Part shown: in pieces, positions 13,623 through 33,414 of the stretch
How the letters are laid out: each line of letters starts with the position of its first letter
Position numbering within the stretch: the stretch's first letter is position 1
Source of the DNA: Candidatus Latescibacterota bacterium
GTDB taxonomy: Bacteria; Latescibacterota; UBA2968; GCA-2709665
Reading direction: 5' to 3'
NCBI GenBank assembly: GCA_965222075.1
Contig: OZ244937.1
Location: 5,280,001-5,344,000, forward strand
DNA length: 64,000 nt
The notes under the pieces: generated by a model
What the model was told of the DNA's origin: nothing
Seen by the model: the letters and a program-made list of their open reading frames with translations, nothing else
The model's database searches: none
Position numbers and translations under genes: made by a program

Positions 13623-13716
13623 GGTAAAGTTCGCCACTGGCGGTATGCTGCATTGCTTGATTCTGAATTGAAAACCAGCTGTATTCTCCTATGCAGAGAA
13701 AGCTCCTTGCGGATAC

Positions 13717-13754
13717 GGCCAACGTTTCCGCCGGCTGTGAACCTGCGCAGCAGG
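13717..13754 (-). mobile_element. Half attC-like site (remnant)
   Basis: GGCCAACgtttccgccggctgtgaacctgcgcagcagg closely matches the left arms of the sites at 19315 and 17596; the other arm is missing. Confidence 0.6.
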
Positions 13755-14006
13755 CGCGGCGACCCAGTGATTATAATAGCGTGTGCCATCGTCGGGAGTC
13801 CCGCGTTCTGCAGCCGCCTTTAACTCGTCTGCGAGTGCTGTGGCCCACTCCTTCCAGGTGAAGTGACCCTGTTCAGAGAGCTTCACGGCCAGGGCGAATG
13901 CGTGGGCTTGCCAAGGTTCGGCGAAAATCGGCCCCTCCTCGTCTTGAGGCAAGGGTGGCAGAGCCTCAATTCGTTTGGCATCAAGGTTAGTGTCAGGCTG
14001 GCTCAA
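13755..14006 (-). pseudogene. Nitrile hydratase accessory protein, 3'-truncated
   Basis: PIFAEPWQAHAFALAVKL...FTWKEWA...YYNHWVAA, then it breaks into the half attC. Confidence 0.8.
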
Positions 14007-14325
14007 GGTATTCCTCCCATAGATCAATGTAGACGATATCCCGTGGTGAGGCTCGTTCTCCCCAAAGTTCCTGAGAATCGAAGCGCACCGTGTATACGTG
14101 CTGCGGGAAGTTACCGAGCCGCTGGCCGTTCTCGTCGGTGTCCTGGAGAGCCCAGACGCCATTGTCTCTCAAAACGGTCCCTCGTTTTCCCCGGGCGTAT
14201 CGAGGTACACGTGTATGACCCCGCGGATGCAGGTTGCGGACACGGACCTCGTCGTCGACGCTGAAGCTCGGAGCAGGTGTAGGGGGGGCAGGCTTATTGC
14301 CCTCCGGAGGAGGAAGGAGCGTCGG
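13993..14325 (-). pseudogene. nthB: Nitrile hydratase beta subunit C-terminal fragment
   Basis: GHTRVPRYARGKRGTV...PQHVYTVRF...ELWG...IDLWEEYLEPA; the N-terminal half and the alpha subunit are absent. Confidence 0.85.
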
Positions 14326-14477
14326 CAGTGGCTGGCCCGGTCTCCAGGGCTGTCGTCGACGTGCTTTGAGAACAAGCAGCGGGGGCAGTGGTTTCGATAG
14401 CTCCCGTTGACCAAAGGATACACTTCCGCATGACAGAATTCGCAAACGAATCCGGTGTTCTCATCTTTCCTGTCCAT
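14325..14477 (-). pseudogene. RNHCP-domain protein N-terminal fragment
   Basis: FVCEFC...SYRNHCPRCLFSKHVD..PGDRASHC, then joins the nthB fragment. Confidence 0.8.
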
Positions 14478-14656
14478 GCCCCTTCTCTATTCAGATGAAT
14501 CAATCATCTCTCCTTTTACTATGCAAATATGGATTCCCTGCATGGCGTCTAATGTCTCACGGTTTGCTGATTCCGATATTCCGTTGCCAGGATTCCATAC
14601 TCGTGACAGACCGCCATGGCCGTTCATACCCGCATGCATCGCGAGAGAGATTCCGC

Positions 14657-15031
14657 TCAAACCCCTTCCCGGAAACGCGTGACGATGGATCGCGCACCGC
14701 TGATCAAGAATTCGTCATCGGTTCCGATTGCAAGAAATCGGAACCCTTGCTCGATGTATCTGAACGCCGAATCGGCATCCGCCGTGTACGCGACTCCGGG
14801 GACCACTCCGTGGCGCTCGCAGGCGTTGAGAACCTTTTGAAATGCCCGCTGCAGGTCGGGATTGTCGAAGTCGAGGTGGCTACCATCGACGGATGTGCTG
14901 CCGATATGCTCAATTTCGAGGGCTGCATCCCCGAAGACAGCGAGAAGTCCTCTCTTCTCAGCATCGTATTTGTGTCGCCACTTCGGGTCGAATTCTGACA
15001 ACTCCCATATGACTGTCTCATCCACTGGCAT
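14657..15031 (-). pseudogene. Chimera of a GrpB-family N-terminus and an HpcH/HpaI aldolase C-terminus
   Basis: FDPKW...E...IEHIGSTSV (GrpB) fused in frame to NPDLQRAFQKVLNAC..HGVVPG...QGFRFLAIGTD (HpcH). Confidence 0.75.
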
Positions 15032-15085
15032 TTCTCACTGTCTGCGAATGTACGGAGATCGCTGAATCATTCGTCACCCAATTTC

Positions 15086-15177
15086 AGGTAACGTTCTCGC
15101 GGTTTGCGAACGCCGACAGGCGTTGCCGCAGGCCAAGGCGCCTGAAAGGCGGCGCAGCGAAAACCGTGCTGTTATCG
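15086..15177 (-). mobile_element. attC-like site 1
   Basis: Plus strand AGGTAAC-N7-CGGTTT...AAACCG-N4-GTTATCG, between two cassette genes. Confidence 0.8.
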
Positions 15178-15190
15178 GAAGTAGACTCCA

Positions 15191-15958
15191 TTAGGCCTGC
15201 GCCGTCACAACTGGTTGAAAATAGCCAGACTGCTCAGGCGCATGCCAGACGATTTTCGTAAATCCGGCTGACTCCAGGGCCGAAGTGAGCTCGTTGCGTC
15301 TTATTGCCCTGTAGCGAGTCCTGGCCTCCTTCACTCGCCATCCACTCGATGCTTGGCTCATTATGAAAAGCCGGACTCGATAGGTATCTGATTCCTTGGA
15401 CCAGTCCCAGATCTGAAATGTTATTGCTCCTCGCTCGGGTACACCATCGAGATTCGGAGCCATAAACGATGGTCTTTCGGCGAGTAACCGATCGTAATCG
15501 CGAATACTGGCAACAAACCGTCCTTTGTCAGTCAGTACGTGCCGGATGCTTCGGAGAGCGAGAGTTAAATCTTCGTCAGTCAAAAGGTGCGGTAAGGAAT
15601 TGTCACAGCTGATCACGACATCGAATTTCTGGCCGAATACACATTCCAGCTCACGAACATCGGCAACAGCGAACCGTATGTTCAGCCCTCGCTTAGCTGC
15701 TTCTGATTTCGCCCTGGCAATCGCCTTCGGGCTAAGATCGGACGCGAAGACTTCGTATCCTCGTTGCGCCAAGCCAATTGCCTGGGTGCCTATTCCGCAT
15801 GAACAGTCCAGGACAACCGATGCATTCGCTGAAGACTCACATTGAATCAACTGATCCAGTGCATACGACTGCCGTTCGATTGCCGATTCCCAGTCCGCGT
15901 AAACGTGATGGTAATCAGCAGCTAAATCATCGTAAAAGCGTTTGACGGATTCGCTCAC
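15191..15958 (-). CDS. Class I SAM-dependent methyltransferase (cassette)
   Basis: VLDCSCGIGTQ, FDVVISCDNSLPHL; GTG start chosen downstream of attC 2. Confidence 0.85.
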   Translation of the reverse strand: MSESVKRFYDDLAADYHHVYADWESAIERQSYALDQLIQCESSANASVVLDCSCGIGTQAIGLAQRGYEVFASDLSPKAIARAKSEAAKRGLNIRFAVADVRELECVFGQKFDVVISCDNSLPHLLTDEDLTLALRSIRHVLTDKGRFVASIRDYDRLLAERPSFMAPNLDGVPERGAITFQIWDWSKESDTYRVRLFIMSQASSGWRVKEARTRYRAIRRNELTSALESAGFTKIVWHAPEQSGYFQPVVTAQA

Positions 15959-15987
15959 GTTGATGACTCTCTCAACGAGTCCATTTC

Positions 15988-16128
15988 CGATAACGTTCCC
16001 GGTGTGTGCGAACCTGCCGAGCGGGCGCGGCGGTTGCAACAGGGGTTTCGATTAGCAAGCGCCGTGACCGCGAAGGAAGGTTGGGCGATGGGGCGAATGC
16101 CCCAAAGCCGCAGCCGGTCGTATTAGCC
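15988..16128 (-). mobile_element. attC-like site 2 (degenerate core)
   Basis: CGATAAC...ATTAGCC with internal inverted repeats. Confidence 0.65.
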
Positions 16129-16186
16129 GTCCGAGCAGCCCACAGACTGCCCTTGCCAGGGTCGGCAAGGCCATCGTCTTTGACCT

Positions 16187-16744
16187 TCACGCTCTTCGAG
16201 TCTGTTTCATATCATGAGCGAATGGGTATAGTTCCCCGAAGTCCGCAGATTCTGGGCCAAATAGCTCTGCCGCTTGTCTGAAATGGACGGCCCGAACTTC
16301 CACAATCCTGCTATTCGGATCCGGATCAGCTCTGTCCTCGGTTTTTCGAACCACATCAGCCCACGATACGACTCGCACATGCTCTGGGTGCGGGAAGTGG
16401 GGCAACCTGGGGCGGTCGTTTCGAGAGACGCAGTAGTACATCCCTATCGGATGAAGTTCCCCCAGATTGCTTCTCGTTTCCTCCAATAGCTCGCGACGAC
16501 CAGCCTCCTCCCAATTCTCGTTGGGTTCGAGGGTGCCTCCCGGCAAGACCCATTTCCCGTTGGACCGCTTGGTCACGAGACAATGACTGTCGGAGACGAA
16601 AGGAATGATATAAGAGGAGCCACAAATAGTCGAAGCCAGTTCATTTTCGAATTTGCGGAAGTGGACATTGGGACGTAGTTGCCCATGCTCCTCACTCAGG
16701 GTGGGGTATTTCGAGATGAGCTTGTCGAACTGCGTACGGTCCAT
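16187..16744 (-). CDS. NUDIX hydrolase (cassette)
   Basis: Nudix box PGGTLEPNENWEEAGRRELLEET. Confidence 0.9.
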   Translation of the reverse strand: MDRTQFDKLISKYPTLSEEHGQLRPNVHFRKFENELASTICGSSYIIPFVSDSHCLVTKRSNGKWVLPGGTLEPNENWEEAGRRELLEETRSNLGELHPIGMYYCVSRNDRPRLPHFPHPEHVRVVSWADVVRKTEDRADPDPNSRIVEVRAVHFRQAAELFGPESADFGELYPFAHDMKQTRRA

Positions 16745-16811
16745 GTTAAAGGCTACGTGTGGTTTTCTGGCGGCGCGTCCTGCGCCGCCCCTGTCTTGCG
16801 GGCTGCTTCGC

Positions 16812-16892
16812 GGCTAACGTATCGCCGTGCCCGAGCCGCGCAGCGGTTGCGCGAAGGGCGTAAGCCCGAAGCCGGGCACGGACGTGTTAGCC
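16812..16892 (-). mobile_element. attC-like site 3
   Basis: GGCTAAC-N6-CCGTGCCCG...CGGGCACGG-N4-GTTAGCC. Confidence 0.85.
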
Positions 16893-16903
16893 GAAGTATG
16901 AAT

Positions 16904-17569
16904 TCACTTGAGGTTGCGTATTGTGCTCGGCAACTCGTCAAGATCGTCAACAACCGCATCCACAATCTCAGGCACCTCCCAGTACTCATCTCGCTTCCAA
17001 ATCGCTTTCATCCCGAAGGACTTGGCGCCCCGAACGTCGGCCTCCGGGTTGTCGCCAATCATGATAGCCTGATCTGGTGAGACGCCCAGGTTGTCGGTCG
17101 CACGACGGAAGATCTCCGCATCCGGTTTTGCGACCCCTTCTGCTTCCGAGATCAACATTGTGTCGAAATAGCGAGAGATTCCCAAACCATCAATCTTCGG
17201 CTGCTGCGAATCAACTCGCCCGTTCGTAACGAGCCCCATCTTTAAACCTTGTTGCCTGAGTATGGTAAGAGTCTGATGTGCCTTAGGAAACGGAACGCAT
17301 ATATGGGGAAAGTATGTCAGGAAGTCCTCCAGCAACCTCTGCCAAATACCGGGTGAGAGAGCAAAGTCGCGTTCAATGCTCCTAAACAGCCCCTCCTTCT
17401 CGGCGTGGCCATGTGCGTCCAACTCAATGACTCGCTCCATGTATTCGGCAAATGGAAGAGATTGAAGATCATTTGCTAGTCGTTCGACCTGAATATGCAG
17501 GTACACTCTAAGGCTACTGATCCGATCCAATAGCGTTCCGTCAAGATCGAAGAGCGCTGCTTGAAACAT
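16904..17569 (-). CDS. HAD-family hydrolase (cassette)
   Basis: FDLDGTL, VTNG, KPD, IGDNPEAD. Confidence 0.9.
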   Translation of the reverse strand: MFQAALFDLDGTLLDRISSLRVYLHIQVERLANDLQSLPFAEYMERVIELDAHGHAEKEGLFRSIERDFALSPGIWQRLLEDFLTYFPHICVPFPKAHQTLTILRQQGLKMGLVTNGRVDSQQPKIDGLGISRYFDTMLISEAEGVAKPDAEIFRRATDNLGVSPDQAIMIGDNPEADVRGAKSFGMKAIWKRDEYWEVPEIVDAVVDDLDELPSTIRNLK

Positions 17570-17595
17570 TTGTACCTCCAGTCGGACTCCATTTC

Positions 17596-17665
17596 GGCTA
17601 ACGGTCTCGCGGGCTGCGAACCCGCGCAGCGGGTTGGTGCGGAGGCGCAGCCCGACGTGTTAGGT
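17596..17665 (-). mobile_element. attC-like site 4
   Basis: GGCTAAC-N7-CGGGCTGCG...CGCAGCCCG-N4-GTTAGGT. Confidence 0.85.
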
Positions 17666-17691
17666 GCAGTGGCATTCAGATTCGTGTCTGG

Positions 17692-18138
17692 CTATTTCAG
17701 GCTCTTCCGAAAGAAGACCTCACTTGCAGGACCCGTGGGAGTCCCTGTCAGAATACCGCAGTCTTCGAAACCCATATGGCGGTGCCATTTCTGAGGGTCC
17801 AATTCATCCAGCTGAGAGGAACTAAGTAGATATGTGAATCCCTTCTCTCGGAGATAACATTCTAGAAAACCAAGCATAGACCGCCCCACACCCTGTCTTT
17901 GATACTTCTTCAAGACTATGATCCCGCTGATGTAGGGCGCGCTATAGTGATGGCCCTGCCAGATGAACTGAAATTCCAGGACACCAACCGGCTCTCCATC
18001 CAATTCCGCAACGATAAACTCCTTTAGCCGGATCTTCGTTTCCACTACATCCACGGTTTCTATTGAAAGCGTATGCTTGCACCATTTGGCGTCCTCGTCC
18101 TTCGCAAACCTCACGACCGTGTCACTAGACCTTGTCAT
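17692..18138 (-). CDS. GNAT acetyltransferase (cassette)
   Basis: YQRQGVG acetyl-CoA motif; WHRHMGF. Confidence 0.85.
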   Translation of the reverse strand: MTRSSDTVVRFAKDEDAKWCKHTLSIETVDVVETKIRLKEFIVAELDGEPVGVLEFQFIWQGHHYSAPYISGIIVLKKYQRQGVGRSMLGFLECYLREKGFTYLLSSSQLDELDPQKWHRHMGFEDCGILTGTPTGPASEVFFRKSLK

Positions 18139-18200
18139 GAAAGTACCAGCCTTTGTAAGAGATGGAGGACTTCGCCGAGAGGTCGAGACTGCGCCATTGC

Positions 18201-18298
18201 GCCTAACGTTCCCGCCACTTGCGAGCCCCGAGCTTGTCGAGGGGTTGCCGACAGGACAAGGCGCCGTAGGCGACGCAGCGCAAAACGCTGTGTTGGGC
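18201..18298 (-). mobile_element. attC-like site 5
   Basis: GCCTAAC...GTTGGGC with internal hairpins. Confidence 0.75.
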
Positions 18299-18326
18299 GA
18301 AGGAGCACGTCTTTTAGGGTATCATC

Positions 18327-18551
18327 CTATGCTTCGAGAAACTCCTCTGTTGTTACCCCAGCTTGCTTCAAGATTGCAGACAAGGTTCCTTCCGGTAAAT
18401 CCCCAGGATGGTTGGGGATCGTCGTTCGGCACCGGGTAGCAGGATTCCACCAGATTTCATGGCTCCCTCGTGCATGCCGATCAAACTCAAATCCCAACCG
18501 TCTCAGTTTTCCAGTTATTTGTCGATAGGTGAAACCTGCAAGACGTCCCAT
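18327..18551 (-). CDS. hicA: HicA-family toxin
   Basis: LRRLGFEFDRHARGSHEIW...IPNHPGDLPEGTLSAILKQAG. Confidence 0.9.
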   Translation of the reverse strand: MGRLAGFTYRQITGKLRRLGFEFDRHARGSHEIWWNPATRCRTTIPNHPGDLPEGTLSAILKQAGVTTEEFLEA

Positions 18552-18796
18552 CAGGCTCCTACCAGTATGTCCAGTTCAACAACCTCAGTATCCAGCGTTT
18601 GCAATCCTTCTGGGAGAGGATCACCGTGTTCACGGTAGGATTCAATCAGTTTTCGTGCCACATCCTGTGCAATCTCAGTTGTTTCGGCCACTGTTCTGCC
18701 TTGAGCAACTAAACCAGGAAAGCTATCCGAAGTAGCTAAAAATTGGCCGTTTTCAACTTTCTGCACTTGAAGATGCAATCTATATTCTTCTGACAC
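18551..18796 (-). CDS. hicB: HicB-family antitoxin (short, no DNA-binding domain)
   Basis: FPGLVAQGRTVAE...A...LIE....GDPLP; overlaps hicA by one base. Confidence 0.85.
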   Translation of the reverse strand: MSEEYRLHLQVQKVENGQFLATSDSFPGLVAQGRTVAETTEIAQDVARKLIESYREHGDPLPEGLQTLDTEVVELDILVGA

Positions 18797-18863
18797 GGCT
18801 CATGCTCCTGTTTGGTGAATAAGGTTAGCTTTTTCGCGTCAACAAACCCTGAGAATATTGACG

Positions 18864-19286
18864 TTAAGTTTTTCTATGCATAACTACCTGTTGAGTAACC
18901 CGAAATTTGCAACTTTTATAGAGAGAGGTCAATTCGGGGTCACAAAATAAAGAGACGATATCGATATCAGCTAGTTCCTCAAGAAGTCGCCTGAGCACAG
19001 CTTTTGCAATACCTGTACGATGATCGGGGTGTACTGTTACATCTTCTATATAAGCACGGAAATGCCCGTCTAGCACCGCGCGCGCAAATCCGATCAAGTC
19101 CTCTTCCTTCCAAGCACCCACTGCAGGATTACGGTTAAGAACGTCAGTAATATCCTGTAGAGAACGCTCCGGACACCACTCATTGGCAGCATAAAGACGA
19201 CGTACAGCATCTGCCGGTATAGGATGCTCTTGATGAGTGCGAATCACGTAATTTACCATTTCAGCGCAGGTATTAATGGAAACCAT
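18864..19286 (-). CDS. GNAT acetyltransferase (cassette)
   Basis: LIGFARAV.DG...AYIEDVTVHPDHRTGIA; the start must lie downstream of attC 6. Confidence 0.8.
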   Translation of the reverse strand: MVSINTCAEMVNYVIRTHQEHPIPADAVRRLYAANEWCPERSLQDITDVLNRNPAVGAWKEEDLIGFARAVLDGHFRAYIEDVTVHPDHRTGIAKAVLRRLLEELADIDIVSLFCDPELTSLYKSCKFRVTQQVVMHRKT

Positions 19287-19314
19287 GGTTGAACAAATAT
19301 TGGTTTGCTCTTTC

Positions 19315-19400
19315 GCCCAACGTTTCCGCGGGCTGCGAACCTGCGAACCAGGTTGGGTCGGAGGTGCGAATGCGCCGCAGTGCAAACTGATGTGTTAGCC
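19315..19400 (-). mobile_element. attC-like site 6
   Basis: GCCCAAC...GTTAGCC; left arm nearly identical to site 4. Confidence 0.8.
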
Positions 19401-19421
19401 GAAGTCGATCTATTTCCAAGG

Positions 19422-20159
19422 TTACATTTTTCTGACTATGAAGTATGCACGTCTGCCCAGCTCATAGGGCTCGCAATCCAGTGACGAAAAAGTATCGCAC
19501 ACCTCGAAACCCACCTCGGAAAAGAGAAATGTCAACTCTCGAAACCCGTAGACCCGCATAGAGCTTATCTTCGTCTCGGAAATTCCGTTCGCAACCAAAG
19601 TCCATTCAGTATCGATCCGGCTCTCCACGTGTCGGTAGTTCGTGTCCTCCAGGACAACTGTTTCACCTGCTTTGCTCCAACCGCGGAACCGGAGTCTTGG
19701 GAGTATTGTTTCAGCGACGTTGGGAATATCCAGAGCAAACCTCGAACCAGTCTTGAGCGCTCGATGCACTGCCTCAAGGAATCGCCTATTTCCGTCGTCG
19801 TCGAAGTATCCGAAACTTCCCCAAAAACAGAATGCCGCATCGAATGTCTCAATCCAGGACAGATCCCTCATATCCGTCTCGACAAGCTCAAGATCAAGAT
19901 TCGCTTCTTGTGAAGCGGATTGCGCCTCTTGAAGAAGGACTGTCGTGATGTCAACGCCAGTTACTTTATAGCCTCTCTCAGCCAGCGGAATCGCCAATCT
20001 ACCATTGCCACACGGCACATCGAGAACCCGACACCCTGGCTTCAAATTGAGCGCGCGCACGAGAAAGTCTACCTCTTCTGAAGTACGCCCTGCTCGCGAG
20101 TTTCTTTGAACGTCGAGCCAGTTTCCCGCAAAAAAAGTGGTCCACCACTCAGTACTCAC
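19422..20159 (-). CDS. Class I SAM-dependent methyltransferase (cassette)
   Basis: VLDVPCGNGR, DMRDL, SFGYF; RBS GGAGG before GTG at 20159. Confidence 0.9.
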   Translation of the reverse strand: MSTEWWTTFFAGNWLDVQRNSRAGRTSEEVDFLVRALNLKPGCRVLDVPCGNGRLAIPLAERGYKVTGVDITTVLLQEAQSASQEANLDLELVETDMRDLSWIETFDAAFCFWGSFGYFDDDGNRRFLEAVHRALKTGSRFALDIPNVAETILPRLRFRGWSKAGETVVLEDTNYRHVESRIDTEWTLVANGISETKISSMRVYGFRELTFLFSEVGFEVCDTFSSLDCEPYELGRRAYFIVRKM

Positions 20160-20199
20160 GTTTAACCTCCAATCTCGGGTCACTCCAACATTCGATTTC

Positions 20200-20283
20200 A
20201 GCTAACGTTTTCGCCGTGCCCGAACCGCGAAGCGGTTGGGCGAAGGGCCGTATGGCCCGTAGCCGGACACGGACGTGTTAACC
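20200..20283 (-). mobile_element. attC-like site 7
   Basis: AGCTAAC-N7-CCGTGCCCG...CGGACACGG-N4-GTTAACC; close relative of site 3. Confidence 0.85.
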
Positions 20284-20370
20284 GCAGTGGGCATGACACC
20301 AATGAAGCTCGCAAATCAAAATGAGTGCCAAACAGAAAACACGCCAAGAAACTACCCTGGAGATATTGCT

Positions 20371-20889
20371 TCACAAGGTAAAGGAAGTATGCTTTCTCCA
20401 CTTGCCGTTGCGCTCCATCATAAGCCAAACCTCTTCTGCGCGACTCTTCATCGGCAGGTATGATTCAGCATTCGATTGAAATTTCTCGACGATTGCTTCC
20501 AACGCAACTGCATCATCCGCATGTGCTACGGTAAGGTGAGGGTTGACGGAAGAATAAGCCCCTTTGTAGGGTGGGTGGTCCGGAAATTGATTTACCAGAG
20601 CTTGAGTCATTCTTTTGAACTCATTATCGGGCTCCGGATGCAAATAGAGGACACCTGGAAACCTACGCACCTCGACAAGGAAAAAGTCGAACGGATGGAA
20701 ACTCTGAATCACCTCCCGGACTTCAATGACACTGTTTCTGGTGATGGCCTCTCGATCCAGAAACGGATAGAGTAGAGTGATATGGGCAGGGATCCCCGCC
20801 TTGGCTGCGGGATCGTATCTACTTCGATACGCCCCAACCAATTTCTCCGCCTTGGGCACCGGAATTAGGATTGCCGATTCGTCTGGCAT
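20371..20889 (-). CDS. 2H phosphoesterase / 2'-5' RNA ligase family (first cassette)
   Basis: Two HxT motifs: AHITL and PHLTV. Confidence 0.85.
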   Translation of the reverse strand: MPDESAILIPVPKAEKLVGAYRSRYDPAAKAGIPAHITLLYPFLDREAITRNSVIEVREVIQSFHPFDFFLVEVRRFPGVLYLHPEPDNEFKRMTQALVNQFPDHPPYKGAYSSVNPHLTVAHADDAVALEAIVEKFQSNAESYLPMKSRAEEVWLMMERNGKWRKHTSFTL

Positions 20890-20927
20890 TTTGCGAAATC
20901 ACTGGATGGAAACATCTTACCCATTGC

Positions 20928-20962
20928 GGTTAACTACGGGATTACCGAACAGTTACGGTAAT
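20928..20962 (-). mobile_element. attI-like array head site
   Basis: Minus strand ATTACCG-N8-CGGTAAT-N6-GTTAACC; the core pairs with the far end of cassette 1; no long attC hairpin. Confidence 0.6.
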
Positions 20963-20994
20963 ACGCGCCAGATCTGAGGATTTCCGAACGTTCG

Positions 20995-21393
20995 GGAACA
21001 TTTTGTTAATATTGGTTTTTGCAAGCCCGGTCAAACGCTTTCTGTACCGACCGCCCGGTCACCCGGTCTGGCGCCCGGGAACAGCCATGTTCGGGGTTGA
21101 TATTGGCGCCTGTAGTCTTGAACCGCCTTCTGTGCGACTGTGGAGAGCATCGTGTAACGATCCTTCCGGTGCTTGCCCTGGCGGATATGGAGCAGTTTTC
21201 GATCCCCGTCGATGTCTTCGACCTTCAACCGGACCACTTCACCCAGCCGAAGGCCTCCGGAATAGGTCAACAGCATGATCGCCTGGTGCTTCAGGTTTTC
21301 TACTGCATCCAGTAACCGAAGCACTTCTGCCCGGCTCAACACAGTGGGCAATTTGTGCTCCTTTTTCGGACGGGGCAGGTTTTCAAGAGGATA
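20995..21393 (-). pseudogene. Tyrosine recombinase remnant (non-IntI, integron-like family)
   Basis: PRPKKEHKLPTVLS...YSGGLRLGE...QGKHRKDRYTMLS...WLFPG, then frameshifted RSVQKAFDRACK; N-terminal domain, HxxR and Tyr are lost. Confidence 0.85.
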
Positions 21394-21770
21394 TTCCATT
21401 GAGGTCTTCTCTCGGCATTGCGGCTGAAAAAAGTGGATTGGCTTTGCTTTCAAACAAATCCCGTGCCGTAGAGACCGCTAACGGAGAACAATAAATGAAC
21501 CTGTTGTGAAATTAGTGTCAGATGGGAGAATATCCTTTTTTAAACAGACCTTTCAGGTTGCTGATTTGTTTCAAAACAGACCGTTCAACGCATTCAGAAA
21601 GTACCATATCCGAAGCGCTGAGAACGTGAACCTATTGTATTTTCAGGTCGTCGTATTGCCCCAATAAGGCGCTCACGGGATGGCGGAAGAGGGGCTGTGG
21701 GCGCGTTATCAAGCGCAGACGGTGATACAGGCGGCTCCGGCGGGTGTAGAGGCGTAAGCGCTGACTGAAG

Positions 21771-23670: not shown

Positions 23671-23831
23671 TGTACGAATCATCCCGTCAACACTGAAAGG
23701 GGTGGTGCTTGCCGAGTAGATGGCTAAGGTCGTGAGGCACTGAATCGGAGGTGAAGAGGTGTCTGATCCAGAGCCTCGATCTGACGATAGGGTTCAAAAG
23801 TAGCCGGGGTTTCTCACCAGGAGGTTGTAGT

Positions 23832-26800
23832 ATGAGACGTGTATACTTGTTGTTTGGCATTGTTCTGAGCCTCTGCCTGCTGGCCGGTCCGGTGTGGTCG
23901 CAGACGACCGGTAAGATCACCGGTAAGATGACCGATCCAAACGGTGAGCCTCTGCCGGGCGCCAACGTGGTGATCGAGGGCACCCGCTTTGGGGCGACGA
24001 CCGACGCGGAGGGCATCTACGTGATCCTGGGCGTAGAGCCGGGCTTCTACGAATTGAAGGCTTCGATGGTCGGTTACGAGGCAGTGATCCGCACGAACGT
24101 GCAGGTGGCTGCGTACCGGACCACGGAGGCGGATTTCACGCTGCGGGAGTCGGCGATCGAGGCGGCGGAGATCGTGGTGACGGCGGGGCGGCCGCTCATC
24201 GAGGTGGACCGGACCGGGAGCGAGGCGAAGATCTCGGAGAAGGAGATCGAGCAGCTCCCGATCCTCCGGGAGACGAGGGATCACCTCCACTATGTGGCGG
24301 GGGTGGATCCGGTGAGGAATAGTGGTATTAATGGGGTGATCATCCGGCGCTCAGATAACTTTCGGATTCAGCAGTTACAGGCCTGGACGTTTGACGGCAT
24401 CGAATTGACGCTCCTGGACAACGGGACCTCGGGGTCGCTTCTGTGGGGTCAACAGTACAACAACACGAATGTGACGGCTATCGGCGAGATGGCCGTTGTG
24501 AGAGGGGGACAATCCGCCTCGCAGGCCCAAAATGCCTTCGGTGTGGTGAACATCATCACCCGCGAGGGGACGCGGGTTCTCCACGGCGGCCTCGACGTCC
24601 GGATCGAGCCGTCGGGCAAGCGGCACCACGGGCCGAACGTCTACGACGCCACCCCCGGGCAGCAGGGGGGTGCGAACGGGATGTGGCGGGACAAGCTGAA
24701 GTGGAACGATCCGGACTGGGTGAACGAGGCCGACCCGGTCACCGGGAAGCAGATCCACGTGAAGCAGGACTACGAGGGCGCTGTCGGACACTTAGTGGAG
24801 GGGTGGCTCACCGGGTCGCTGGGTGAGAACGCCACGTTCGTCTTGAGTGCCAGAACCGGCCGGTCCAAGCAGACCTTCCCGGCTCCGCAGAGGACCAGCC
24901 TGCGCCAGCGGCACATCTTCGGGAAGCTCAGTTTCACGCCGTCCGACAACCTCAAGTTGAAGTTCGGCTACCACGACTCGTATGAGCCCACCTGGGGTCG
25001 AGGTGACCAGAGAGGGGTGAACAGCAACCTCTTCCTGGTCCGGGACCGGGGGCATACGGGGTATGAGAGGCGGTGGAAGAACCGGATCGTCTACCTGACG
25101 GCCACCCACACGCTCGGCCCGAAGACGTTCCACGAATTCCAGATCGGGTTCTACGGGACGAACGTCGATACAACAGAGGAGACCGACGGGGCGACGAGTT
25201 CCTGGCGGAGGGACGAGAGCGGGAACTTCAACGTGGATCGGAAGATTCGGAATCTGCAGGTTGACCACAACCGGCGCTACAACTTCCGCTACGCCATCAC
25301 CAGCCAGATGAGCCGGTGGAACCTGGTCAAGACCGGGTTTACCCATCAGATCTTCCACAACGCCAACTGGCATTTACAACAGGGGAGCCCGAGCGGTGCC
25401 ACGATCTGGGTCATGGGCAAGGACGGCGTGCCGGGCACGCGGTATGTCGTCCACCGGTTTGCGTGGTACGCCGAGGACAAGATCGAGTTCCGGGGCATGG
25501 TCGTGAACGTGGGGCTCCGCTACGACGCGATGTGGGGCGGGCCCAGGAAGACGCTGGCGGGGTTTTACAAGGCGACGCCGCAGCATCGGACGTACAAGGC
25601 ATTCCTGACGCGCACGCCCCGGGCGCAGGGGAAGGCGCTGGCCTACTGGTCGCCCCGGGTCGGCGTTTCACACCCGATCACGGCCAGGTCGGCCATCCGG
25701 TTCTCGTTCGGCCGCTACTACAAGCCGACGTCGTTCGGGCAGATATATTCCGAGTCGTGGGCCACCAACGACTTGCTCAACCACCCCAACCTGGACGGTA
25801 CCTGGGGAAATGGGGGCAAAGCGGGCGGGGGCTGGTATCTGGACCATATAAACCGCAGCCCGTCGGGGAGCCCGAATTTGACTGAGTTCGAGGTGTCCGG
25901 GGCCTGGAACTTTTTGAGCAACTACGTCTTAGACATGGCCACCTACTACCGGCGGACGGAGCGCGCGACCGGCGGGAATAACCGCTATTACGTGGACCCG
26001 GTACGGGGACAGGGTCAAGAACGGACGCAGGGGCCTTTTGCCCGTGCGGAGTCCAAGGGCTTCGAAATGGCGGTCTACAAGCCCCTGTCCCAGAACTTCG
26101 CCTTCCGGTTCTCGGTGGACGTGGGCTGGTCTTTCTACTATTTCACGGGCGCCGCCCCGGTCCTCACCCACATCTACCCCGACTCCACCTACATCGCCGG
26201 CCCGAACTACTTCTTAGTGGATACGAACGACGACCCGGTGCTGTTGACGGACACACAGATCCGCGATCTCGGCCACAAGGCCAACGAGACCATCCGGAAG
26301 GTGCGGGAGCAGTTGACCAGGCAGGAGCAGGTCACGGATATCTTGACGCCGCTTAAGCCCCTCTCGGAGTGGCCGGGCATAAGCGGCGAGGATCGGAGTC
26401 GGCCCGAAATCCAGGGCCTCTGGTATTCATCCACCTGGAGATCGCTCAAGAACGCTGCGTGGGGTCCGCCCGCGCCGACCACACAGGCGACGTTCCAGTT
26501 CCTCTGGTCCACCCCGTCCGACTGGGGGCCGGGGCCGACTGTGGGCGGGTCGAAGCTGTTGGGCGGCATCCAGGCGAACCTGGTCTGGCGGTTCAACAGC
26601 GGGGTCAACTTTGCGCATACGCCGCCGGACAACCCGAAGGTGGTCGATGCCTTCCGCTCTGGACCGATGTTCGTCCGGGCGGACCTCAACTTCCAGAAGA
26701 CGTTCGAGGCGGGTACGGGCCGGCCCACGCTCTACGTTGAGGTCTTCAACCTTTTCAATACCTATCTGGACCAAACCCGCAACGCCAACTACGTCCGGTG

Positions 26801-30660: not shown

Positions 30661-33414
30661 ATGGTCGATCGGATATCGGTTTTGCGATGGACGGTGGGAG
30701 GCGTCCTGTGCGCTGTTGTTTTGGGCCTGTGGACGGGGACAGATCTGGCGGCTGAGCGGTTGTCCCCGGCGGCCATTGATTCGCTTTACAGCCGGGCGAA
30801 ATATCTGGATGCCCGGGGCGTTCGTGCGCTGGCGAGGAGACTGGAAGGCGCCGTACCCTACTACCCCGAGAGTGCGGGCCTGCTGACCCGGATCGGGATG
30901 CTCTATTTGCGGGTGGGAGAGGCCGGCAGCGCGCGCTCGGCGTTTCAGCGGGCGATCGAGAAAGATCCCGGGCGGGCGACTGCACACTGTGGATTGGGGC
31001 GCATCCACCTGGAACTGGAGGACGATCCCAGGGGGGCGCTGCCCCACCTGCAGGCGGCTGTGGCGGCCGATTCCACGTATACCTGGCCCCCCTATTTCCT
31101 GGCACGGGCGCTGGCGCAGATCGGTCAAGGCCACCTGCAAGAAGGAGCGGCCGACAGCGCACGCTCGACGTTCCAACAGGCGGTCGGGTACGATCCGAAG
31201 CTAACTGCTACGCACTTCGGCTTAGGACGCGTCTACTTAGAGCTGGAGGAGGACCCGAAGGGGGCGCTGCCCCACCTGCAGGCGGCTGTGGCGGCCGATT
31301 CCACAAATGCCGACGCGCACTACTTTCTGGCCCGGGCCTACCGGGAGATTGGGCGGCCGGAGGCGAGGAAGGCGGCGGACCGGGCGATCCGGTACGACCC
31401 GATGTATGCGCCGGCTTATCTGCTGCTGGCCCAGTCGTATCAGGAGGAGGACAACCGGCTGGCGATGATGGTCTACTATAAAAAATACCTGGATCTGTTC
31501 CCGAAGGACCAGGAACCGGCGTATGCGTTTGCCCTGGATCTGATGCAGAAGAGGCGGTTCAAGGAGTTGGAAGAGATCACCTCTCTGATGATGGACAGGC
31601 GAGCGCTGCCCCTGCTGGCGCAGGCGCTGATGCGGCGGGGGGACTACGAAGGGGCGGTGCGGGCGTTTGGACACTACGTTGAGACTTTAGATCCGAAGGA
31701 GCAGGAGCTCTACGACGATATTTCGCTGGTGGGGCTGCCCCACGAGGTCGAGGCCTACAAGGCGGCGCCTCCGGAGAAGCGGGAGGCGTTTCTGCGGCAA
31801 TTCTGGCTGCGCCACGATCCGTTCAAGGCCTCCGGAGGGGCCTTGCGCCGTGCAGAGCACTACCGGCGGGTCTGGCACGCCCGGACCTATTACGGGAAGG
31901 TGAAGTCCCCGTGGGATCGCCGCGGAGAGGTCTACACCCGCTACGGGGAGCCCGACTACCGCTCCTCTTCGGAGGATATGAATGCCAAGATCCCCCCCGC
32001 TGTACAGCGCGTACAGGATCAGATGGCCTACGAACTCTACGGCGCGCAGGGGTTGGGAATCACGTTCGTGGGGCCGGTCTTCCCGATTCGGACAGGCGTC
32101 GGAAGCTACAGGGGCCTTCCTGGGGACCTGCGGATAGCAGGGTCCGATCCCGAAGGACCGATATCCGATCCGTTTAGTGCTATCTCTCCCGGGGAACGTC
32201 AATACGAAGCTGATGACATCGCCCCGCAAGAGATCTTCCCCGAGACGGTTGTGAAGCTGGACCCCGAGTTTGTGGTGGGACTGAGCGGGTGGAAGCCGGT
32301 GACCGTCGGAAACAACTGGGCGACAGTGCCCTGGGAGGTGTGGGTGTATGCCGACGTGGGGAAGGGGCTGGAGATCGCTTTTACGGATGAGTACCTTTCC
32401 GGCGTTTACGACTACGCCCCGATCCCCGGTGTGGATGAGCGGGACCTGAAGCGGTTGGATGAAGATCGGTTCGTTGGGGAGACCGCTTACCTGCGCCTGA
32501 TGCAGCGGCTGACGGAGTTGGCCCCCGCGATCCGGGTGGCCAAAGTGGTGCGGGAGGAGCCCGAGCGCTACGACATCTCCGGCTTCGAGCCGCTCGACTT
32601 CTACTACGATGTGGCCTCTTTCCGGGGGCGGAAGGGCCTGACGGAGGTGCAGGTGAACATCGGCATCCCGATCGACCATGTGATCCAGCCGGGGGATACC
32701 GATACCACGGTGGTGGTGGATCGGCGGGTTGCGCTGATCGGCAGCCGGTACACCCATCTGCTGCCGGCGCAGCGAAGCCTGGAGGCGCCGATCTCCGGAC
32801 TCGGCCGGAACCGGGCCCTGCTGGACCGGGTGCTTATGGAGGCTTCTCCGGGGAACTATGAGCTGGCTGTACAGGCGGGGCGCCGGGGCACGCGTCTGCT
32901 CCAATCCTACCTGCAGGACTTGAAGCTCCAGGATTATTCGGGCAAGGACCTGGGACTGAGCGACCTTTTGGTGGCAAAGCGGGTGACCGCAGCAACCGAG
33001 GCCACGTCGGATCCGAGGTTTGTACGGGGGAAGTGGCGCATCACGCCGCTGCCGTCGCACGTCTTCCAGGTTGGGCAGCACGTGTTTGTGTATTCCGAGA
33101 TCTACAACCTGATGCGGGATGAATTCGGGGCCACGCGCTACGAGGTGGCCTACGAGCTCCACGCGACCGGCACGGAAGGGACCGTATTGTCGCCCATCCT
33201 GACGAGGATTCTGGGGCGACAGTCGGAAGCGGCAGTGACGGTCCGCTACGAACAGACGGGCACGGAGGAGTCGGTCTCGGATTATGTGGAGCTGGACATC
33301 GGCAAGGCCGAGTCGAGGCGCTACCGGGTGCGGATGACGGTGAAGGACCTGAACAGCGGGCAGGAGGTGAGCAAGGAAGGGATGTTCTGGGTGGCGACAT
33401 CTGAATCCAGATGA
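30661..33414 (+). CDS. TPR plus GWxTD-like domain protein (1)
   Basis: Signal peptide; TPRs; FWLRHDP...EHYRRVWHA...PWDRRGEVYTRYGEPD; C-terminal beta-sandwich domains. Confidence 0.8.
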   Translation: MVDRISVLRWTVGGVLCAVVLGLWTGTDLAAERLSPAAIDSLYSRAKYLDARGVRALARRLEGAVPYYPESAGLLTRIGMLYLRVGEAGSARSAFQRAIEKDPGRATAHCGLGRIHLELEDDPRGALPHLQAAVAADSTYTWPPYFLARALAQIGQGHLQEGAADSARSTFQQAVGYDPKLTATHFGLGRVYLELEEDPKGALPHLQAAVAADSTNADAHYFLARAYREIGRPEARKAADRAIRYDPMYAPAYLLLAQSYQEEDNRLAMMVYYKKYLDLFPKDQEPAYAFALDLMQKRRFKELEEITSLMMDRRALPLLAQALMRRGDYEGAVRAFGHYVETLDPKEQELYDDISLVGLPHEVEAYKAAPPEKREAFLRQFWLRHDPFKASGGALRRAEHYRRVWHARTYYGKVKSPWDRRGEVYTRYGEPDYRSSSEDMNAKIPPAVQRVQDQMAYELYGAQGLGITFVGPVFPIRTGVGSYRGLPGDLRIAGSDPEGPISDPFSAISPGERQYEADDIAPQEIFPETVVKLDPEFVVGLSGWKPVTVGNNWATVPWEVWVYADVGKGLEIAFTDEYLSGVYDYAPIPGVDERDLKRLDEDRFVGETAYLRLMQRLTELAPAIRVAKVVREEPERYDISGFEPLDFYYDVASFRGRKGLTEVQVNIGIPIDHVIQPGDTDTTVVVDRRVALIGSRYTHLLPAQRSLEAPISGLGRNRALLDRVLMEASPGNYELAVQAGRRGTRLLQSYLQDLKLQDYSGKDLGLSDLLVAKRVTAATEATSDPRFVRGKWRITPLPSHVFQVGQHVFVYSEIYNLMRDEFGATRYEVAYELHATGTEGTVLSPILTRILGRQSEAAVTVRYEQTGTEESVSDYVELDIGKAESRRYRVRMTVKDLNSGQEVSKEGMFWVATSESR

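Follow-up and report, generated by a model that had tools for sequence, protein, structure and literature searches.

Chromosomal integrons consist of arrays of promoterless gene cassettes with imperfect AAC–GTT hairpins, cassette ends cut between G and TT, and an attI-type site beside the gene of the tyrosine recombinase IntI. IntI has an extra domain (profile intI_Cterm), inserted between the β-hairpin lysine and patch III (the I2 helix region). This domain defines IntI, serves to detect it and is deemed necessary for the recombination of folded attC sites in the passages available from PMC9024848, PMC9668308 and PMC7790495; the available part of PMC7790495 adds that the gain of I2 enabled single-strand recombination and notes a 'lack of intermediates'. 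Here we analyse a 64,000-nucleotide stretch of a Candidatus Latescibacterota genome (positions 5,280,001–5,344,000 of the one-contig, 5.36-Mb assembly; hereafter the window), which carries a cassette array headed by the remnant of a tyrosine recombinase gene. The locus shares the integron features listed above, and its recombinase family has the PF13495 and PF00589 domains of IntI and its nearest relative in sequence and fold in PDB entry 2a3v. In contrast to IntI, the family lacks the insertion, scores below the cut-off of the IntI profile TIGR02249 and has, in many members, an extra N-terminal domain. In contrast to chromosomal integrons, the recombinase gene is co-oriented with the array, the spacers of the hairpin sites have a different geometry, and a covariance model of these sites misses a class 1 attC.

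A precedent for co-oriented intI and cassettes is the Treponema denticola integron: in the sections of PMC4909258 and PMC4889954 at hand, the integrase gene and cassettes of such 'reverse' or inverted integrons point in the same direction and attI lies downstream, as in the locus described here. The same sections of PMC4889954 place Treponema in an inverted integron-integrase group and call IntI only where PF00589 and intI_Cterm both match, which suggests that these integrases keep the insertion. The recombinases studied here differ from them in lacking it, including those of Spirochaetota (locus L141 matches TIGR02249 in two pieces). Insertion-less recombinases of IS91 and IS3 elements have been described as an 'integron-like' subgroup (Smyshlyaev et al., 10.1101/542381; PMC8138268), and the available parts of these papers do not mention arrays. 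The IS91-linked ones belong to the same family as the window recombinase, whereas the window orthologues have no adjoining IS91 transposase and precede an attI-like site with its array; the N-terminal domain, lacking in IS91-linked members, is present in most of the array-linked ones. Arrays that have an IntI neither close by nor elsewhere in the genome are by definition clusters of attC sites lacking an integron integrase (CALIN), of which the available part of PMC9024848 reports only 'a few CALIN' in Firmicutes. The window array falls under this orphan-array label, but a candidate cognate recombinase and an attI-like site can be named for it. A literature search, with subscription journals outside its coverage, turned up no paper on arrays that have an insertion-less recombinase at their head.

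We interpret the window as probably containing the fossil of an integron-type cassette platform, whose cognate recombinase is IntI-like and without the IntI insertion. Anatomy, synteny, cassette-end signatures and phyletic spread are established by the comparisons that follow. Across about 14.6–21.9 kb of the window, G+C falls from about 62% to 49–57% and every sizeable open reading frame (ORF) lies on the minus strand. On that strand, positions 15086–20934 hold seven complete cassettes and a truncated eighth, with seven AAC...GTT hairpin sites of 70–141 nt between them; a reading made from the letters of the window alone (the sequence-only reading) had described this arrangement, and the site coordinates, the Pfam matches and a GrpB fragment in the eighth cassette confirm it. 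The features are as follows, in the direction of transcription (G and L numbers denote genomes and loci).

21389–21678, minus strand: conserved non-coding region upstream of the recombinase gene, 84% identical to L034 10671–10974 (G002), present also in L036 and L035
21003–21453, minus strand: IntI-like tyrosine recombinase remnant without the IntI insertion (ORF 21031–21453, 140 amino acids)
20922–21002, minus strand: 3' two thirds of the attI-like site, with GAAC..GTTC-type palindromes; crossover GTT at 20934–20932
20206–20933, minus strand: cassette 1, 2'-5' RNA ligase-like (LigT family) ORF 20371–20889 (Pfam) and site A
20200–20283, minus strand: site A, AAC...GTT hairpin
19321–20205, minus strand: cassette 2, S-adenosylmethionine (SAM) methyltransferase ORF 19422–20183 (Pfam) and site B
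19315–19400, minus strand: site B, AAC...GTT hairpin
18207–19320, minus strand: cassette 3, GNAT acetyltransferase (18864 to about 19286), HicB-like ORF (18551–18796), HicA toxin (18327–18551) and site D
18201–18298, minus strand: site D, AAC...GTT hairpin
17602–18206, minus strand: cassette 4, GNAT acetyltransferase ORF 17692–18138 (Pfam) and site E
17596–17665, minus strand: site E, AAC...GTT hairpin
16818–17601, minus strand: cassette 5, HAD hydrolase ORF 16904–17569 (Pfam) and site F
16812–16892, minus strand: site F, AAC...GTT hairpin
15994–16817, minus strand: cassette 6, Nudix hydrolase ORF 16187–16744 (Pfam) and site G
15988–16128, minus strand: site G, long AAC...GTT hairpin
15092–15993, minus strand: cassette 7, SAM methyltransferase ORF 15191–16039 (Pfam) and site H
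15086–15177, minus strand: site H, AAC...GTT hairpin
14657–15091, minus strand: truncated cassette 8, N-terminal GrpB fragment in an in-frame fusion to unrelated sequence

The recombinase remnant lies directly upstream of the array and on its strand. Its homology to intact orthologues covers 21003–21392, which is 88% identical in nucleotides to the middle of the G018 and G002 genes and corresponds approximately to residues 132–268 of the 333-residue G018 protein; the ORF aligns to positions 2–100 of the 172 in PF00589. The remnant scores 75 bits against the archaeal XerA profile NF040815 and 72.4 bits against TIGR02249 (cut-off 265). The alignment to TIGR02249 ends at profile position 176, just short of the IntI insertion, and only about 20 residues separate KDRYTML from WLFPG, which bears out the sequence-only reading that the remnant lacks this insertion. 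That reading had also called the copy dead. We find the gene truncated at both ends relative to intact genes, with two internal deletions and a frameshift near the 3' end, where the alternative frame runs for 13 codons before a stop; of the presumed catalytic residues only the first Arg and the Lys are retained, and the HxxR motif, the His and the Tyr are gone.

Both flanks of the remnant, 290 bp upstream (21389–21678) and 80 bp downstream (20922–21001), match the flanks of intact recombinase genes and are syntenic with the loci of G002, G018, G044 and G047, so that the locus is orthologous to these although the 5' and 3' parts of the gene are deleted. Judged by this sequence comparison, the remnant is a decayed orthologue of a recombinase–attI–array module kept in related genomes. 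The upstream conserved region contains two 19-nt direct repeats (21537–21555 and 21569–21587), which could be a regulatory or accessory binding site. A promoter and terminator scan gave consensus matches only and was not used.

The intact attI-like site is an element of about 130 bp that directly follows the recombinase gene and contains GAAC..GTTC-type palindromes. It is kept in seven aligned copies (that of the window and six others), in which conservation breaks off exactly after GTTA. In the window, the junction GTTAACCGCA is the reverse complement of the end of the first cassette's own site over 10 nt. In 14 of 23 loci from several phyla, a stretch 39–149 nt past the stop codon matches the end of the nearest cassette site over 9 nt or more, compared with 8 of 506 mismatched locus pairs used as a control. 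In G047, a full-length recombinase gene is immediately followed by the attI-like site and an array. As in an integron, a putative attI thus appears to lie beside the recombinase gene. Second copies of the recombinase 3' end together with the attI-like site are present in G018 (L033 11839–12249, upstream of the gene) and in G047 (L035 19213–19351, 8.8 kb downstream and past several cassettes); recombination between attI-like sites may have produced them.

If circular cassettes are cut between G and TT, the bases that follow GTT should be able to pair with the beginning of the next site and not with that of their own. We compared the four variable nucleotides after GTT with the reverse complement of the four before AAC in 144 sites from the host genome, its relatives and distant phyla, all detected with a covariance model (R1) built from the seven window sites. 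The match was perfect with the next site in 63 of 107 cases, with the same site in 9 of 144 and in 208 of 5,000 random pairs. As in integrons, the two ends of a cassette would therefore derive from one site through circular intermediates.

According to RNAalifold, the fold of the window sites consists of an outer box of 6 bp, then an unpaired spacer, and then a helix that is 8 bp or longer, with compensatory changes in 6 of 14 pairs. Among 41 distinct sites from distant phyla, compensatory changes occur in all eight inner-helix pairs, and pairing holds in 89% of cells, compared with 25–41% when the partner is slid, in an alignment that was itself fitted to the model. This covariation supports a folded form of the sites.

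A search of the whole genome with R1 returned 55 sites in at least six clusters, including all seven window sites. A recombinase or attI-like remnant lies at the upstream end of three of the six clusters. The genome contains four fragments of the recombinase gene and no intact copy; one fragment lies in the window and the others at 697 kb, 416 kb and 3,408 kb. The search for a true intI that the sequence-only reading had called for gave no TIGR02249 match above the cut-off in the whole genome. With every copy of the recombinase broken and no IntI, the window array and the other clusters are expected to be frozen; 55 hairpin sites would persist without an integrase because all cognate genes are dead. 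Further large clusters, all on the minus strand, lie for example at genome positions 3446742–3471097, 4158603–4174898 and 972710–982185, and no recombinase remnant was detected at their upstream ends.

Homologues were found in 20 of 61 genomes of the same class, and we searched 20-kb stretches around 18 of the loci with R1. An IS91 Y2 transposase follows the recombinase in three of them. Among the other 15, 11 have R1 matches solely downstream on the recombinase strand and two have none at all. The arrays of G018 and G002 run on for at least another 15 kb. Between these two genomes the chromosomal flank is 86% identical, while cassette blocks are 97–99% identical but reordered and the recombinase-proximal cassettes differ, which is cassette turnover.

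A scan of one genome per GTDB species yielded at least 594 relatives, from which we kept 80 loci in Firmicutes, Gemmatimonadota, Nitrospirae, Nitrospinae, Spirochaetota, Bacteroidota, Thermodesulfobacteria, several candidate phyla and Archaea. At E values up to 1, R1 gave 54 matches in 21 of these loci, and 53 of the matches (20 loci) lie downstream on the recombinase strand, although less sequence was searched downstream (307 kb) than upstream (506 kb). Together with the 11 of 15 related loci, this answers in the affirmative the question, raised with the first reading, of whether intact homologues are followed by arrays. The loci with downstream same-strand matches belong to Firmicutes, Spirochaetota, Nitrospinae, Gemmatimonadota and an archaeon. 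Where at least 3 kb of downstream sequence was available (34 loci), 15 have R1 matches and 7 have an IS91 transposase instead. A simple motif count gave 112 matches in the 307 kb downstream on the recombinase strand, compared with 40, 43 and 48 on the other strand or upstream.

In Desulfitobacterium sp. Sab5, co-oriented ORFs are each followed by a 70–85-nt site running from ATAAC to GTTAT. The contig breaks off no more than 350 bp past the recombinase stop codon in 23 of the 80 loci, as expected if a repeat array follows. Two home-made hairpin scanners were dropped, one of which found 2 of 7 known sites while the other gave 39 raw matches in the window.

Full-length members of the recombinase family combine PF13495 and PF00589. 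Six fuller homologues score 191–241 bits against TIGR02249 (cut-off 265), and intact homologues match it in two pieces, 1–178 and 235–315, skipping the stretch of the insertion. The homologues score 204–219 bits against XerA (cut-off 220) and 168–194 bits against XerC and XerD (cut-offs 330–335). R224, K249/K252, H314, R317, H340 and Y349, which we take to be the tyrosine-recombinase catalytic set, are invariant in 24 full-length homologues. The closest PDB entry is 2a3v, both by sequence (E value 9e-65) and by fold; its chain A is named 'site-specific recombinase IntI4', and residues 181–238 of this chain, where the family lacks the insertion, face only 16 profile positions. The predicted model of the recombinase has a mean predicted local distance difference test (pLDDT) score of 84, and the archaeal Xer recombinases 4a8e and 5hxy stand close behind 2a3v among the PDB matches. 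Comparative evidence from many independent loci supports the earlier proposal of a parallel cassette-capture system run by a different recombinase family, with the qualification that this family is not remote but the closest known relative of IntI. The highest TIGR02249 scorers, L041 (G003; 241 bits) and L042 (G057), still lack the insertion; both face their arrays divergently, like classical integrons, and G003 has hairpin sites on both sides of the gene.

An additional N-terminal domain of about 75 residues is present in 47 of the 80 distant members. It is found in 14 of 18 members with model-detected arrays and in none of 10 IS91-linked members, and it is absent from the four IntI and two Xer proteins checked. 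The domain has a strand-strand-helix-strand-strand-helix order and two invariant Trp residues (for example L035 9301–9561), and it is deleted in the window. The Pfam HARP family matches it weakly (E value 1.3e-4; 21.9 bits against a cut-off of 25). Comparisons of its fold gave sub-threshold Foldseek matches to 2fz4 and 4o66 (E value 0.14) and weak matches to 1rif, 2oca, 5tnu and 4o66 (VIA Z 3.5–4.7), which together with the HARP match point to HARP, the N-terminal domain of XPB (XPB-DRD), the N-terminal part of UvsW and the C-terminal part of MotA, all of them folds with branched or distorted DNA as their ligand.

In a quick tree, the IS91-linked members form one clade and the array-linked members are spread over the remainder. 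A nesting of IntI within the insertion-less family, suggested by this tree, was not supported by the approximately unbiased (AU) test, in which a tree with all 82 insertion-less rows in one clade was better by 22.9 log-likelihood units (p-AU 0.78). We therefore describe the relation to IntI only as close, possibly that of a sister group.

In a live module, an attI-like site of dyad-symmetric repeats would lie about 40–150 nt past the stop codon of the recombinase gene, on the strand of that gene, and lead into an array whose promoterless cassettes each have an AAC...GTT hairpin site at the end. The recombinase would insert circular cassettes at the attI-like site and excise them between hairpin sites, with strand exchange between G and TT of GTTA, as in integrons. 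Comparative anatomy points to the recombinase as the catalyst of these reactions, and their substrate would be folded single-stranded DNA. More speculatively, the N-terminal domain may replace the structure-specific DNA contacts made by the insertion in IntI.

If confirmed, such modules would widen the definition of integron-type systems, place them in clades reported to be nearly integron-free, such as Firmicutes, re-label part of the CALINs as complete systems, and provide natural proteins for testing the origin of structure-specific recombination. We also lean, by a little over an even chance, towards a broader proposal in which canonical integrons belong, as just one branch, to a bigger superfamily of cassette-capture systems that may also be older. 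Its insertion-less sister branch, in which the recombinase either lost the I2 insertion or never possessed it and often has a HARP/DRD-like N-terminal domain in its place, would have co-oriented arrays in Firmicutes, Gemmatimonadota, Spirochaetota, Nitrospinae/Nitrospirae, Thermodesulfobacteria and Archaea. This branch would account for part of the 'orphan' CALIN arrays and supply missing intermediates toward tyrosine recombinases that act on folded DNA, and the IS91-linked recombinases would have branched off from it while keeping the use of such sites.

Several observations weigh against reading the window as an integron-type platform with its own recombinase. IS91 transposases accompany one subclade (12 of 13 rows), so the family does not uniformly head arrays; among the 34 distant loci with at least 3 kb downstream, 12 have neither an R1 match nor an IS91 transposase, and in 2 of the 15 related loci free of IS91 (G003 and G057) the arrays are divergent or mixed in orientation. 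In integrons, attC recombines as a folded bottom strand whose extrahelical bases set the polarity. The consensus spacers of the sites described here are asymmetric (5' side, 4 nt; 3' side, 7 nt). In the class 1 integron aadA2 site, read by eye as a control, the spacers measure 5 and 6 nt and the 5' arm has two extra bases, and R1 does not score this site even with filters off and E values up to 10; the sites described here have conserved flanks beyond the AAC and GTT boxes. Among the four closest orthologues, only that of G047 looks full-length, since the N-terminal domain is missing in G018, the N-terminus is truncated in G002, and G044 combines an internal deletion with an altered C-terminus, which indicates that the lineage nearest the window is itself decaying. 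Finally, the related genomes G004 and G060 and the distant genome G064 carry a canonical IntI elsewhere, which could act in trans.

The last point is shared by the alternative that fares best, in which a canonical IntI, since lost or acting in trans, built the arrays and the insertion-less recombinase is a passenger that lands at array heads, for example as an attI-targeting mobile element. IntI above the TIGR02249 cut-off is indeed present in 6 of the 61 related genomes and in one of five distant genomes tested, IS91-linked members do insert inside arrays (G007) and beside intI (G004), and PMC4889954, in the passages at hand, deems recombinases near attC without intI_Cterm not to be IntI. Against this, the attI-like site is conserved together with the gene and its position is fixed, with the cassette junction 39–149 nt past the stop codon in 14 of 23 loci from several phyla. 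Furthermore, no IntI scores above the cut-off in the host genome, in G018, G002, G044 and G047, or in four of the five distant genomes, among them those of Desulfitobacterium sp. Sab5 and Brucepastera parasyntrophica, which are complete, and each of the five has a single full-length (two-piece) recombinase match. In addition, three canonical intI loci of relatives (L061–L063, 10-kb flanks) contain no R1 match, motif cluster or array-type repeat family. On this evidence, we consider the passenger explanation unlikely.

A second alternative, that the remnant is debris of an IS91-type element with a tyrosine recombinase and lies near the array by accident, appears more doubtful still. It draws on homologues at 41–55% identity that precede an IS91 Y2 transposase (PF04986 and PF14319; L044, L045 and L047), on an IS91 transposase beside the recombinase in 10 of the 80 distant loci, on the four decayed copies in the host genome, a state in which insertion sequences are often found, and on the preprint 10.1101/542381, the available part of which puts IS91 and IS3 recombinases in the integron-like subgroup. 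The remnant's own setting argues otherwise: its flanks are syntenic with loci of the gene–attI–array type, a tblastn search with the G007 transposase found no match in the host genome or in the 15 related loci free of IS91, the IS91-linked clade excludes the window orthologues, and IS91-linked members lack the N-terminal domain.

A third alternative, which we regard as highly improbable, is that the recombinase serves the array without capture, in a Xer-like role of dimer resolution, inversion or regulation. In its favour, the XerA scores are as high as the IntI scores, and 4a8e and 5hxy closely follow 2a3v. Against it, two further Xer-like genes, both full-length, are present in the genome (3.27 Mb and 3.86 Mb), and the cassette-end and junction signatures need G|TT exchange at a site beside the gene.

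The IS91-linked members show associations with arrays of their own. In G007, a 2.5-kb unit of recombinase and IS91 Y2 transposase (L044 8067–10560, L045 8155–10648) is bounded like a cassette: identity between copies stops right after the GTTA of a 3' hairpin site, and the 5' end opens with the reverse complement of that site's own start. This genome has six copies of the unit, several of them inside arrays. In G004, an IS91-linked recombinase lies directly 3' of a canonical intI in two places (2158606–2160397 and 2493564–2495712; L047, L053 and L062). It is 41% identical to the remnant, occurs in three identical copies and has no window-type hairpin sites nearby.

Several minor features of the window array were noted. 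In cassette 3, the HicB-like ORF has no Pfam match and is named solely from its position before HicA. Between the GNAT and HicB-like ORFs of this cassette (18797–18866) there is a short stem with a ..TTAAC start and no GTT end, possibly the remains of a site; cassette 3 would then have consisted of two cassettes at an earlier time. The ORF of cassette 7 (15191–16039) probably has its real start further inside. The GrpB fragment of cassette 8 covers positions 3–39 of the 159 in PF04229, and no covariance-model match to a terminal site occurs below 15081 in the window, where the array ends. A search of the region against Rfam matched no family.

Beyond the end of the array, positions 13689–14477 hold an RNHCP-domain ORF and two overlapping nitrile hydratase beta-like pieces in different frames, apparently from a frameshifted gene. 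Positions 14562–14609 are 94% identical to sequence adjoining a site of the 4.158-Mb array, so that a decayed array may extend past 15086. On the opposite flank of the locus, the 5' end of a TonB-dependent receptor gene (window 23802–23999) has a 96% identical repeat at genome positions 30830–31027 and weaker ones elsewhere.

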